From IMG/VR virus record IMGVR_UViG_2531839103_000015: 4,699 nt of DNA; one strand, written 5' to 3'. Each line of letters begins with the position of its first letter. Within the stretch, counting starts at the first letter, position 1. Position numbers: made by a program. This document shows, one piece after another, positions 1 to 3,000 of this stretch. This DNA is from a virus. Lineage: Duplodnaviria; Heunggongvirae; Uroviricota; Caudoviricetes.

Positions 1-3000
1 TACTGGCATCAACAGGGAGTACAGGCGACTCGTATGACAACGCGATGGCTGAGAGCATCAATGGTCTTTACAAAGCGGAGGTAATACACCGTAAGAGCTG
101 GAAAAACCGTGCAGAAGTGGAACTGGCCACACTAACGTGGGTGGACTGGTATAACAATCGACGATTGCTGGGAAGGCTGGGCCATGCTCCTCCGGCAGAA
201 GCAGAAAAAGCTTATTATGCTTCCATCGGAAACGATGATCTGGCAGCCTGAGTTCACAGATAAAACACTCTCCAGGAAACCCGGGGCGGTTCATGACTGT
301 TAAAGAGCGGGTACTGCTTAGGCGGCTTTGTTACTGGATGGAGGGAAAACATCATCCAAAGAACATTGGCACCCTAACTTCCTGAGGCCTTCTACGATCA
401 TTCGGCAATCGTTAAGGCCAGGAGTACGGATATTCAGCTCATAGTTGGCGATGCGGGATTGCCCCCAACCAATTGCCGAAGCTAGTACAGCTTGCGAAAC
501 TCCGATTTTTTTTCGCTGCTGGGCAATTTTGTTCATTGCGGTCTCCCTAGCATTAATCACACACCCATTACACACAATTTGTGATTAACAGTCAACCTCA
601 ATTCGTGTACAGAGTTCAATCACGTTGCGTGTTACATTTAAGGGATGAAAACGATGCATGAAATTATCGGGGAAAGGATCAAGTCCCTTAGAGAAGCTAA
701 AGGACTTAGCCAGGCTCAATTGGCCAAGCTTTGCGGCTGGGCTGCGCCTTCACGCCTGGGGAACTACGAGTTAGGAACAAGAAAGGTTAGCGCGGATGAC
801 GCGCTGGTTCTTGGGGCGGCACTCGGCGTATCTCCGGCAAAAATAATGTTTGGCGAGGATTCAGACGCCGTATTTCGCCAATATGAATACCCGTTATTTT
901 CTTCAGTGCAGGCCGGGCCATTTTCGGAGGTGGGAAGCTACACAGCCAGCGATGCAAAGGCATGGGTCCCAACGACCACAAAAGCCAGCGAAAAAGCTTT
1001 CTGGCTTGAGGTGAAGGGGCATTCAATGACGGCGCCTCAGGGGGTTCGTCCAAGTTTTCCGGAAGGCATGCTGATACTCGTTGATCCGGCTGAGCCGGTA
1101 GAGTCTGGGGATTTCTGCGTGGCTTCTGCAAATGGTGATTCAGAGGCAACGTTCAAGAAGTATGAGAAGGATGCAGGGGTTAGTTACCTGGTACCTTTAA
1201 ACCCGGCATATAGAACCCTGGATTGCGACCATAGCTGCCGCATCATAGGCAAGGTAGTTAAGGCGCAGTGGCCTGAAGAGACGTTTGGCTGATCGGCAAG
1301 GTGTTCTGGTCGGCGCATAGCTGGTAATCCAACTTTTCCCTGTTCTTTTTATGCAAATTAATCTAATGAAATTGAAAAGATTTTTACCTATTTTGTTGGT
1401 TCAGGAGAACATAAATGAGCGATAAACAAGAAGTTTCCTTAGCACATATCAATGATGTGCTGGAGTCCAAAAATTATATTGAAACTAATGCTGATGGGGT
1501 TGTAACCATCGGAACGGATAACAATGGCTACGAAGTTTTTAACTTCGTTTTTCTCAATAGCACCCCTGTCATCGGCCATATGAATGGCGAAATCGCAGTG
1601 GCAGGAATGCAGCGCACTAAGGTTGCGTCCGTGACTTTAAGTAAACAGAAGGCCTTCGATTTCTATCAGTCCTTGAAAAGCATGTTCGAGGAATAAAAGC
1701 TGATGAATGCAGCTCAATCATCTTTGGATGAGGGAAAGCTAGTAATTGCTTACTCTGATAAGAATGGCTCTACAGTAGGGCTGGAATTTTCTTCTGTAGC
1801 ATCAAGCCAAGCAACGCTCTTGATGAAAGCTTGTTCTGTTGCTGCTTCAGATAAAGAAAAACGGATTGTCACATCGGTTGTGATGGATGATACTGAGATC
1901 ATTCAAACAACAAGTGATGATGGAGGCGACGACATGGATAAGCGATTAGCAGTTCTTGAAGCTGAAGTTGCGCACATCAAGAGCAGCATGGCAGGAATTA
2001 AAGAGGATACCCGGAAAATATCTTCTGATTCTACTGACGCCAAAAGAGACACCGCTGTACTTTTACAGAAGAGCCTGGATTTTGATGCTTCATTATCTAA
2101 GAAACCATCGGTTGACTACTTTGAAGCTAAATTTTCCGCTTTGGAAACCAAGATAGCAGATGTAAAAGTATGGATGCTCGGGGTTCTCTTGGCCTCGCTT
2201 GCTATGCCAACTATATTTTTCCTAATAAACTTGTACCTTAAGAAAGGTCAGTAATTTAGCAAATCCGGCCACCGAGCCGGGTTTTTTATTGCCCGCCGAT
2301 CACTATCAGGACAGCACCTGCCCGCCGGTCCAAACTATTGATTAAATTACTATAATTCTTAATACAACTCCCATATCCCGCCATCTCGCCACCACCCCAT
2401 TCGCTCGTTTTTCGAACTTTTCAGCACCCATCCTGCTGTTGCCACCGACTTAAGTAAGCAAAACCATCGCGGGTAAAACTATTTACACAAAAAAATCATA
2501 CACATAACGTGTCACACCTTTATTTTACACATTTTGTGATTGACCATTAAATCACAATATGTGACTATCATTTCCATCAGCAGGACGCTGAGACGCCACA
2601 AGGAACAGATTGGCAGGCTCTTTAACATCGACGAACTCTCAACCTAACCGTTGAGACCAGAACTTGAGTGGTTTTGGGGATGGCGCGAATTGCAGCTGCA
2701 AGACAGCGATCGAGAAGATAAACACCTCGACGCGTCATGCGCCAAAGCCACTTAAAGGAGACCATCATGGTAACCATTGTCTGGAAAGAATCCAAAGGTA
2801 CGGCAAAAAGCCGCTACAAAGCTCGCAGAGCAGAACTTATTGCCGAGCGACGCAGTAATGAAGCACTGGCGCGAAAAATTGCGCTAAAGCTCTCTGGTTG
2901 CGTCAGAGCAGACAAAGCAGCATCACTCGGAAGCCTTCGCTGCAAGAAGGCAGATGAATGCAGTGGAAGTATTTGCCTGCCAAACGTAGCCATTTACGCG

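Follow-up and report, generated by a model that had tools for sequence, protein, structure and literature searches.

What kind of switch lies between the divergent cI and cro genes of this prophage, and is it a new one? The window, that is, the whole 4,699-nt stretch of DNA analysed here (Caudoviricetes virus record IMGVR_UViG_2531839103_000015), carries repeats between the two genes and again downstream of cI. The initial annotation read them as two operator arrays of a switch built from duplicated HTH domains that compete for identical half-sites. We find an ordinary lysis/lysogeny switch, that of a lambda-like Shiga-toxin-1 prophage of E. coli. Region 537-644 is very probably OR, and the cluster at 2498-2566 OL, of a lambdoid prophage with the VT1-Sakai/Sp15/mEpX1 immunity type and a lambda-like switch. 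The three-site array is genuine yet already known, having been annotated in the VT1-Sakai record in 2000.

The identification follows the sequence of the whole immunity region. Window positions 302-2600 are 100% identical at the nucleotide level to AP000400, the GenBank record of the VT1-Sakai (Sp15) Stx1 prophage immunity region (Yokoyama et al. 2000), and 99.8% identical to mEpX1; cro, OR, cI and OL all have the sequence of this immunity type. With phiSTEC801-Stx1a, these two are grouped as the closest known immunity regions. Of 5426 complete E. coli genomes, 105 carry the module at 99% identity or more. AP000400 lists cro, cI, pR, pRM, pL and six 17-bp "putative operators", which have the coordinates of the six operators in Table 1 and agree with the centres given in the initial annotation. 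A search of the searchable literature found no experimental paper with binding, footprinting or transcript mapping for the VT1-Sakai immunity type; a review, PMC10877973, identifies the Cro of Hernandez-Doria and Sperandio as z1448 of O-island OI-45.

The layout is lambdoid throughout. cro and cI diverge, with 108 bp between their ATGs, three pseudo-palindromes lie over pR/pRM, and a second cluster lies over pL, which drives nutL and N; N and the nut sites stand downstream of pL and pR.

Table 1. Features of the immunity region (window coordinates; strand "." for the operators)
Feature	Position	Strand	Description
nutR boxA	309..298		CGCTCTTTAACA
cro	318..536	-	72 aa, all-helical HTH_3-type Cro; annotated in AP000400
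pR (cro promoter)	567..595	-	-35 TTGACT 595..590, 17-bp spacer, -10 TGTAAT 572..567; AP000400
OR1, cro-proximal	570..586	.	ACACACAATTTGTGATT, minus strand AATCACAAATTGTGTGT
OR2, middle	594..610	.	AACCTCAATTCGTGTAC
Proposed pRM	610..638	+	Weak -35 CAGAGT 610-615, 17-bp spacer, -10 TACATT 633-638
OR3, cI-proximal	618..634	.	AATCACGTTGCGTGTTA, CACG-N3-CGTG
cI	645..1292	+	215 aa, N-terminal HTH_3/HTH_31 and C-terminal Peptidase_S24
OL3	2498..2514	.	ATACACATAACGTGTCA; annotated in AP000400
OL2	2525..2541	.	TTACACATTTTGTGATT; last 2 nt within pL -35
pL	2540..2568	+	-35 TTGACC, 17-bp spacer, -10 GACTAT; AP000400
OL1	2550..2566	.	AATCACAATATGTGACT; over pL spacer and -10
nutL	about 2616-2656		Downstream of pL
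N, phage-21-type	2767-3039		Downstream of pL; Pfam N_peptide

Both triplets of sites proposed in the initial annotation are borne out. The three pseudo-palindromic 17-bp sites of OR are centred at 578, 602 and 626, with a spacing of 24 and 24 bp, and those of OL at 2506, 2533 and 2558, with a spacing of 27 and 25 bp. The form first assigned to them, CACA-N3-TGTG, is over-specified. A pattern search over the window found it exactly at 573, 2528 and 2553 only, all in the OR/OL set but just three of the six sites, with two mismatches each at 597 and 621, a level at which 19 matches per window are expected by chance. CACR-N3-YGTG instead has five exact matches in the window, against 0.16 expected, and every one is an OR or OL site (five of six), including all three at OL; with one mismatch, the only further matches are the middle OR site and a shifted, out-of-register match at 571-581 that overlaps OR1. 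The consensus of the OR and OL sites is the 17-bp AAWCACR-WWW-YGTGWTT, in which the CAC/GTG cores are 5 bp apart. In leave-one-out PWM scoring, five of the six sites rank 1 in the window: OL2 (19.0 bits), OL1 (18.1 bits) and OR1 (15.7 bits), which match CACA-N3-TGTG exactly, and OL3 (14.7 bits) and OR3 (11.8 bits), which match CACR-N3-YGTG exactly.

Conservation across genera supports the same set. The comparison took in 37 distinct OR sequences (Pantoea, Winslowiella, Proteus and IMG/VR phages). The half-site cores and pR hexamers do not vary among them, while the operator centres and the DNA between operators are variable. At OR1 the cores (586-580 and 577-573) show no variation or next to none, and the centre at 578-579 is variable; at OR3 positions 634, 633, 631-629 and 623-619 are invariant, and the centre, 624-628, varies freely. 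OL1 and OL2 are also kept in relatives, and OL3 stands at the same spacing in most of them. Almost all strict matches in a set of 27 relatives fall either at OR, as a pair or triple at -67/(-43)/-19 relative to the start of cI, or in a second cluster downstream of cI. That cluster holds two or three sites (L162 has a single strict one) and lies at a variable distance, about 740-3540 nt; the pattern holds irrespective of the cargo in between. This footprint upgrades the "putative" operators of the VT1-Sakai record to well-supported ones, and their consensus is refined here. A fourth OR site, as in H-19B, was suggested by a 9-bp inverted repeat, TTAATCACA/TGTGATTAA (553-561 and 580-588), and by the palindromic ends of 554-570; this candidate was ruled out, with conservation of 0.38-0.7 per column in relatives and a PWM score of -32 bits.

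The middle site requires separate treatment. By sequence alone OR2 is not significant: it scores 3.1 bits in the leave-one-out PWM, rank 2 of 4598 17-mers, and a 17-mer scoring as high or higher turns up in 91% of shuffled windows. It combines a good half-site, GTACACG, with a defective one in which CTCA replaces CACA, leaving one mismatch to CACR-N3-YGTG. OR could be functionally bipartite, the true operators being those at 578 and 626 only and 594-610 being kept merely through its overlap with the pR and pRM -35 regions; promoter elements could indeed explain part of its conservation (594-595 and 606-610). We consider this improbable. OR2 lies exactly midway, 24 bp from both neighbours, and its good half-site, TACACG, is kept although it is outside the pR -35. 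The distant relatives L161-L169, with a CI N-terminal domain (NTD) 57-70% identical, have a strict CACR-N3-YGTG site at this very position. In the Proteus group it is the other half that is degraded, the defective one having regained GTG, a swap that would be expected for a site kept deliberately weak, and the CI protein carries a lambda-type cooperativity domain. OR2 is therefore accepted as real because of its position, its conservation in the 37 relatives and the consensus-quality sites that distant relatives have there.

How do the three operators sit on the promoters? pR, pRM and pL were placed from the AP000400 annotation, conservation and an overlay on lambda. A simple consensus promoter scan, which has a strict -10 rule, reported none of the three; it missed pR because the hexamer has a G at position 2. 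TTGAC and TAAT of pR are invariant in relatives, some of which have AATAAT as the -10, and the register equals that of lambda pR. At pL, GTGATTGAC and the downstream CATCAGCAGGA are kept in relatives. OR1 lies within the pR spacer, as first described, and also covers the first 3 nt of the pR -10. The last 2 nt of OR2 fall within the pR -35, and the site adjoins the proposed pRM -35. The initial annotation had instead placed the cI-proximal site over the pRM -35, which is wrong: under both placements of pRM, OR3 covers the spacer and reaches into the -10, and the site adjoining the -35 is the middle one.

pRM has weak hexamers and two candidate placements. The AP000400 alternative is TGTACA-18-TGTTAC at 606-635; we favor a -10 at 633-638. 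There, TAnATT is kept in relatives (TAGATT in several), and 6 nt without conservation separate it from the invariant ATG645, an arrangement that superimposes on TAGATT-N6-ATG of lambda. Transcription from this proposed promoter would begin at about A645. ATG645 is likewise favored as the cI start over position 654, the start in AP000400, since ATG645 is invariant in relatives and ATG654 is not.

The proteins encoded on either side are those expected of a lambdoid switch. CI has an N-terminal HTH and a C-terminal S24 domain (Pfam Peptidase_S24, E 3e-26; PDB 3bdn lambda repressor, E 7e-52), the latter 62% identical to the C-terminal domain of lambda CI. In a global alignment the cleavage-site and catalytic residues of lambda CI are matched by Ala90-Gly91, Ser127 and Lys171, so that the Ala-Gly site and Ser/Lys dyad of a lambdoid repressor are both present. 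Cro matches Pfam HTH_3 (32.5 bits versus a cut-off of 23), and its best PDB relative is 28tn, a "lambda repressor-like protein" (E 3.6e-10). The lambda-type Cro family, PF09048, which lambda Cro itself matches, gave no Pfam match in this Cro, and BLASTP against lambda Cro gave an E of 3.2. An AF2 single-sequence model of Cro is all-helical with low confidence (pLDDT about 61); it was set aside as too poor for a fold search.

The paralogy of the two HTH domains claimed in the initial annotation stands up to formal alignment. BLASTP aligns Cro with the CI HTH at 38% identity over 47 aa (E 1e-7), and hhalign aligns the Cro and CI-NTD profiles at 98.8% (E 9e-17). These alignments support Cro and the CI N-terminal domain as homologous HTH_3 domains and place Cro in the all-helical class of 434 and P22, in which Cro is paralogous to the repressor NTD. 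The similarity may reflect duplication, common descent of all such pairs or gene conversion. The recognition regions were called near-identical; they are similar, but only 13 of 23 residues are the same and there is a one-residue indel. Common to both is the recognition helix S-R-x-x-N-Y-E, with S, R, N, Y and E invariant in both families.

An invariant S-R-x-x-N-Y-E beside an invariant CAC core fits the idea that Cro and CI would read identical half-sites. The operators are predicted to bind both proteins, CI cooperatively and the two with opposite site preference, given the lambda-like C-terminal domain of CI and the common recognition helix. CI and Cro might instead lack common sites, CACR-N3-YGTG serving one and the other reading a different intergenic sequence. 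The start of the recognition helix does differ, A-P-S-R after a turn one residue longer in CI versus G-Q-S-R in Cro. However, the 108-bp intergenic region holds no second conserved repeat family and is variable outside the sites and promoter hexamers, the extra palindrome at 554-570 being neither conserved nor well scored. The recognition helix is invariant in both families, and in lambda, 434 and P22 CI and Cro use common sites as a rule. We regard separate sites as very unlikely, less so only than the reading of the repeats as chance matches or as host-factor sites such as those of CRP (TGTGA/TCACA half-sites): TGTGA and TCACA pentamers are present, but this reading is effectively refuted, since no exact match lies outside OR and OL, TCACA-N3-TGTGA is the reverse of the CRP consensus TGTGA-N6-TCACA, neighboring sites form TGTGA-N12-TCACA rather than N6, and the sites travel with the CI/Cro pair across genera and differing gene cargo. 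Orientation and spacing rule out CRP-type sites, and the probability left to chance or a host factor is practically nil.

Which known switch does this one resemble? In architecture it is lambda. Both have divergent cI and cro, three 17-bp operators in a CAC-N5-GTG register and ATCAC-like outer half-sites. Measured from the cI ATG, the operator centres are at 19/43/67 nt here versus 19/42/66 nt in lambda and superimpose within 1 bp. In both, OR1 is in the pR spacer, OR2 touches both -35 regions, OR3 is in the pRM spacer, 6 nt separate the pRM -10 from the ATG, and three OL sites lie about 2 kb away. There are also differences. By sequence the immunity is not imm-lambda: in the N-terminal domain CI shares only 31% identity with lambda CI, and the half-site AAWCACRWW departs from TATCACCGC at operator positions 7-9, which are A/G-W-W here versus C-G-C in lambda. 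The Cro fold family is HTH_3 rather than the alpha+beta PF09048, and the OL spacing is 27/25 bp versus 24/20 bp.

In its Cro the switch is closer to 434 and P22, where Cro is all-helical HTH_3, homologous to its own repressor NTD and very similar in the recognition helix, and where Cro and repressor read the same operators. For 434 and P22 it is textbook knowledge that Cro and repressor are HTH paralogues, and lambda Cro is the exception. The suggestion that an HTH-paralogue switch would be special is therefore not supported. In 434, whose sequences were verified against PDB, the identity between Cro and repressor is 52% (E 2e-21); the pair here has diverged further, its 47-aa alignment having 38% identity and an indel of one residue in the turn. 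The operators also differ, being 17 bp with a CAC core here versus the 14-bp ACAA-N6-TTGT of 434, and the CI C-terminal domain, compared with 434 and P22, is lambda-like. Like H-19B and 933W, this is a lambdoid Stx prophage with multipartite OR and OL controlling early promoters. These phages are of other immunity types: as summarised in PMC8065619, H-19B has four OR sites (Shi & Friedman 2001) and 933W three OR and two OL sites (Tyler et al. 2004), versus three and three here.

The phage-21-like N prompted a comparison with imm21, which was rejected. Only 2574-2958 (nutL-N) matches the DE3 prophage of BL21(DE3), at 97.7% identity to phage 21 nutL-N, and the window has no sequence relationship to the cI, cro and P22-like operators of imm21. 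On the other flank an IS1203 end lies at 293, adjoining nutR boxA, and the IS has displaced nutR boxB. The 8 nt to the left of 302 are the mEpX1 version, not that of VT1-Sakai. None of the complete E. coli genomes among the top matches shows an uninterrupted IS junction like the one in the window. The separation of nutR boxA from boxB by IS1203 in this prophage copy is an added observation.

By analogy with lambda, the switch would operate as follows. CI dimers would bind OR1 strongly, and their lambda-like C-terminal domain would allow cooperative recruitment of a second dimer to OR2, which is intrinsically weak. CI at both sites would occlude the -35 and -10 of pR. The OR2-bound dimer, centred at about -43, would also activate the weak pRM, from which the transcript probably starts at the A of ATG645, giving a leaderless cI message. 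In lambda CI an acidic patch on helix 2 contacts sigma-70. Helix 2 of the present CI is without acidic residues, so activation of pRM may work differently or may not occur. At high CI concentrations OR3, centred at -19, would be filled and pRM turned off, and CI at OL1 and OL2 would likewise repress pL and N. RecA-stimulated self-cleavage of CI at Ala90-Gly91 would then allow Cro to be made from pR. Cro would bind the same sites as CI, presumably OR3 first, and shut off pRM.

What could give the two proteins different preferences among these sites? The operators on the side of the lytic promoters, OR1, OL1 and OL2, read CACA...TGTG, OR3 reads CACG...CGTG in most relatives (among the 37 sequences, the G of CACG at 81% and the C of CGTG at 76%), and OR2 is a hybrid. 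Consistent differences between CI and Cro are found only in the turn and the first helix residue, which read A/S/Q-P/A/Q-S-R in CI, with its one-residue-longer turn, and G/K-Q/P/K-S-R in Cro. Position 7 and the turn/first helix residue may together set opposite occupancy orders for CI and Cro; we offer this tentatively and think it rather doubtful. If true, the position-7 code would make this family a compact natural system in which to study the way paralogous HTH domains divide identical half-sites between them, and the family would give a second, independent example of a leaderless cI message from pRM.

For the biology of these phages the switch brings nothing new and is another instance of the lambda/434 paradigm, to which the present analysis adds evidence for a cI start at ATG645, probably leaderless from pRM. 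E. coli O157:H7 carries the prophage, as do about 2% of complete E. coli genomes. Its operators set the stability and SOS inducibility of an Stx1-converting prophage and so bear on toxin-phage induction and superinfection immunity.

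The window (4699 bp) comes from a lambdoid prophage, of which it is the early-left/immunity region, with lambda's leftward direction on the + strand. Stx1 phage VT1-Sakai (GenBank AP000400) matches 302-2600 at 100.0% identity. Identity to phiSTEC801-Stx1a is 99.8-99.9%, as it is to phage mEpX1 for cro-cI and OL. Complete O157:H7 genomes carry the same immunity module within the Stx1a prophage at mlrA/yehV, and 105 of 5426 complete E. coli genomes have the module of cro, OR and the CI N-terminal domain (NTD) at 99% identity or more. By sequence, the immunity type is that of VT1-Sakai/mEpX1. 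A literature search found no experimental work on this type.

Features of the immunity region in window coordinates
Feature	Coordinates	Strand	Sequence or remark
IS1203/IS629 element, 3' end	1-293		
nutR boxA	309..298	-	CGCTCTTTAACA
cro	536..318	-	
Intergenic control region	537-644		
pR	595..567	-	TTGACT-17-TGTAAT
cI	645-1292	+	
Two cargo ORFs	1415-2254		function unknown
Cargo ORF, 93 aa	1415-1696		
Cargo ORF, 183 aa	1703-2254		
Terminator	2261-2284		
Second control region	2498-2568		
N gene, phage-21-type	2767-3039		with nutL
sieB, ea10-like gene, cIII, kil, gam start			after N

Imm-lambda was rejected as the immunity type. Imm21 was rejected too, since likeness to phage 21 is limited to nutL-N: a mosaic joint lies just downstream of pL, at about 2574, and beyond it nutL and most of N (2574-2958) share 97.7% identity with the phage 21 segment of the DE3 prophage of BL21(DE3), whereas the cI, cro and operators of imm21 are unrelated to those here. 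The N protein itself diverges from that of phage 21 at the C-terminus (90 aa here, 99 aa in phage 21). The two cargo ORFs lie between cI and OL, where lambda has rexA/rexB. Their matches are to PHROG 12039 and 12602 (unknown function), with none in Pfam or PADLOC, and the 183-aa ORF ends with a hydrophobic stretch that by eye resembles a membrane helix. Relatives carry other cargo of very different length in this slot.

The operator array is real, already annotated and conceptually textbook. AP000400 carries three 17-bp 'putative operators' at 570-586 (OR1), 594-610 (OR2) and 618-634 (OR3), whose centres, 578, 602 and 626, are exactly those proposed in the initial annotation. It also marks pR, pRM, pL and three further operators at 2498-2514 (OL3), 2525-2541 (OL2) and 2550-2566 (OL1), in agreement with the claimed recurrence at OL. 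The sites are 24/24 bp apart in OR, as regular as first described, and 27/25 bp in OL. The proposed motif, CACA-N3-TGTG, fared less well in a pattern search of the window. It is exact at 573, 2528 and 2553 only (0.06 expected), while the sites at 597 and 621 have two mismatches each, a level at which about 19 matches per window occur by chance. The motif is over-specified. Alignment of the 12 half-sites gives the consensus A-A-W-C-A-C-R-W-W, with C4 and C6 in 12/12 and A5 in 11/12. The form CACR-N3-YGTG has five exact matches in the window, all within OR or OL, versus 0.16 expected; with one mismatch tolerated, the only additions are the middle OR site and a shifted match overlapping OR1. In a leave-one-out position weight matrix (PWM) over ~4600 17-mers, five sites rank first; the middle OR site is weak, ranking second with only 3.1 bits (alone not significant). 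A candidate fourth OR site at 554-570 was neither PWM-positive nor conserved in relatives.

Searches with Cro and the CI NTD returned ~170 related loci from Pantoea, Winslowiella, Proteus and IMG/VR viral contigs. Across 37 distinct OR sequences, the half-site cores are (near-)invariant (634, 633, 631-629, 623-619; 586-580, 577-573; 609-604, 599, 597), and TTGAC of the pR -35 and TAAT within its -10 are invariant. Free variation is seen at the operator centres (624-628, 578-579), between the operators and in the cro leader. Invariant half-sites around variable centres are the classic footprint of a dimeric HTH operator. In 27 relatives with 9-kb flanks, the strict motif is nearly confined to OR positions -67 and -19 from the cI start (-43 too in more distant relatives) and to a downstream cluster. 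This cluster (OL) has two or three sites, or a single strict site in one locus (L162), and lies ~740-3540 nt after the cI start, varying with cargo genes. One half of the middle OR site is always defective, with GAG in the E. coli/Pantoea group and AAAC in the Proteus group; the site is strict consensus in relatives with 57-70% CI-NTD identity.

Aligned on the cI ATG, the intergenic regions of lambda and of the window superimpose, with operator centres at 19/42/66 nt in lambda and 19/43/67 nt here (from ATG645). OR1 lies within the pR spacer, as initially annotated, and reaches 3 nt into the -10; OR2 overlaps the pR -35 by 2 nt. OL1 occupies the spacer and -10 of pL, whose -35 is touched by OL2. 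The cI-proximal site had been placed over the pRM -35. This is wrong: OR3 ends in the TA that begins a conserved hexamer, TAnATT (TACATT, 633-638), so that the site overlies the spacer and -10 of pRM. The hexamer is followed by six non-conserved nucleotides (639-644) and ATG645 (MKTMHEII...), which is invariant in the 37 distinct relatives. Because 639-644 is not conserved, no Shine-Dalgarno sequence ahead of cI is conserved in this set. The Proteus group has lost ATG654, the cI start in AP000400. Therefore, cI probably starts at ATG645 rather than ATG654 and is probably transcribed from pRM as a leaderless message, as the match of TAnATT-N6-ATG645 to TAGATT-N6-ATG of lambda pRM also suggests.

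CI has HTH_3/HTH_31 and Peptidase_S24 domains and keeps the Ala-Gly cleavage site and Ser/Lys dyad. Identity to lambda CI is 62% in the C-terminal domain (PDB 3bdn, E 7e-52) and only 31% in the NTD. Despite the latter, the outer half-site ATCAC is common to lambda TATCACCGC and window AATCACRWW; lambda OR (locus L171, 2552-2615) shares the 17-bp geometry of the window operators (570-634, 2498-2566), and lambda OR2 TAACACCGTGCGTGTTG looks very similar to OR3 here TAACACGCAACGTGATT. The 72-aa Cro belongs to HTH_3; assignment to lambda-type PF09048 was rejected. The nearest solved structure is PDB 28tn, a recent 'lambda repressor-like protein' entry (82 aa, E 3.6e-10); the alignment spans residues 1-71 and takes in the C-terminal DDVFPPS motif.

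The HTH similarity of CI and Cro held on formal alignment (38% over 47 aa, E 1e-7; family profiles, 98.8% probability, E 9e-17), with 13/23 residues of the HTH stretch identical and a one-residue indel. In every relative, both families keep S, R, N, Y and E of the recognition helix unchanged, paralleling the invariant CAC core. In one locus (L145, IMGVR_UViG_2851673891_000001; cro upstream of position 4501), the Cro recognition region GWKPSRLSNYELG is closer to the CI version than those of other Cros GWGQSRIANYELN, which may point to exchange or convergence involving the module's two paralogues. A Cro that is an HTH paralogue of the repressor is the common state among lambdoid phages, lambda Cro being the exception. 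The 434 pair, whose sequences were confirmed against the PDB, is 52% identical (E 2e-21), and lambda Cro and CI show no similarity in sequence comparison. The special switch of duplicated HTH domains first proposed is therefore the common lambdoid arrangement. The module resembles 434 and P22 in this respect, and lambda in operator geometry, promoter overlap and the CI C-terminal domain. Overall, the initial annotation is partly confirmed, being right on sites, spacing, OL recurrence and HTH similarity, too specific in its motif and wrong on the pRM -35; its interpretation is partly supported.

In the proposed switch, CI dimers would occupy OR1 and fill the weak OR2 cooperatively via the lambda-like C-terminal domain, repressing pR. 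The dimer on OR2, at about -43, would stimulate pRM, and OR3, at -19, would mediate negative autoregulation. pL would be repressed through OL1 and OL2. OL-OR looping across ~2 kb is plausible because the C-terminal domain is lambda-like. RecA-stimulated cleavage at Ala90-Gly91 would lift repression, and Cro would then occupy the same sites, silencing pRM.

The right end of IS1203/IS629 (terminal repeat 281-293) abuts the prophage 4 nt downstream of boxA in the pR direction. The boxB hairpin CACCTCTAACCGGGTGAG, present in mEpX1 and VT1-Sakai, is missing on the window side of the element. Therefore, nutR is split by the IS, and cro is separated from cII-O-P-Q. This exact junction was not found among the top-scoring complete E. 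coli genomes; in strain M1300706002 the IS lies 152 nt further away. With the IS in nutR, the pR operon is predicted to respond poorly to N and the prophage to be harder to induce.
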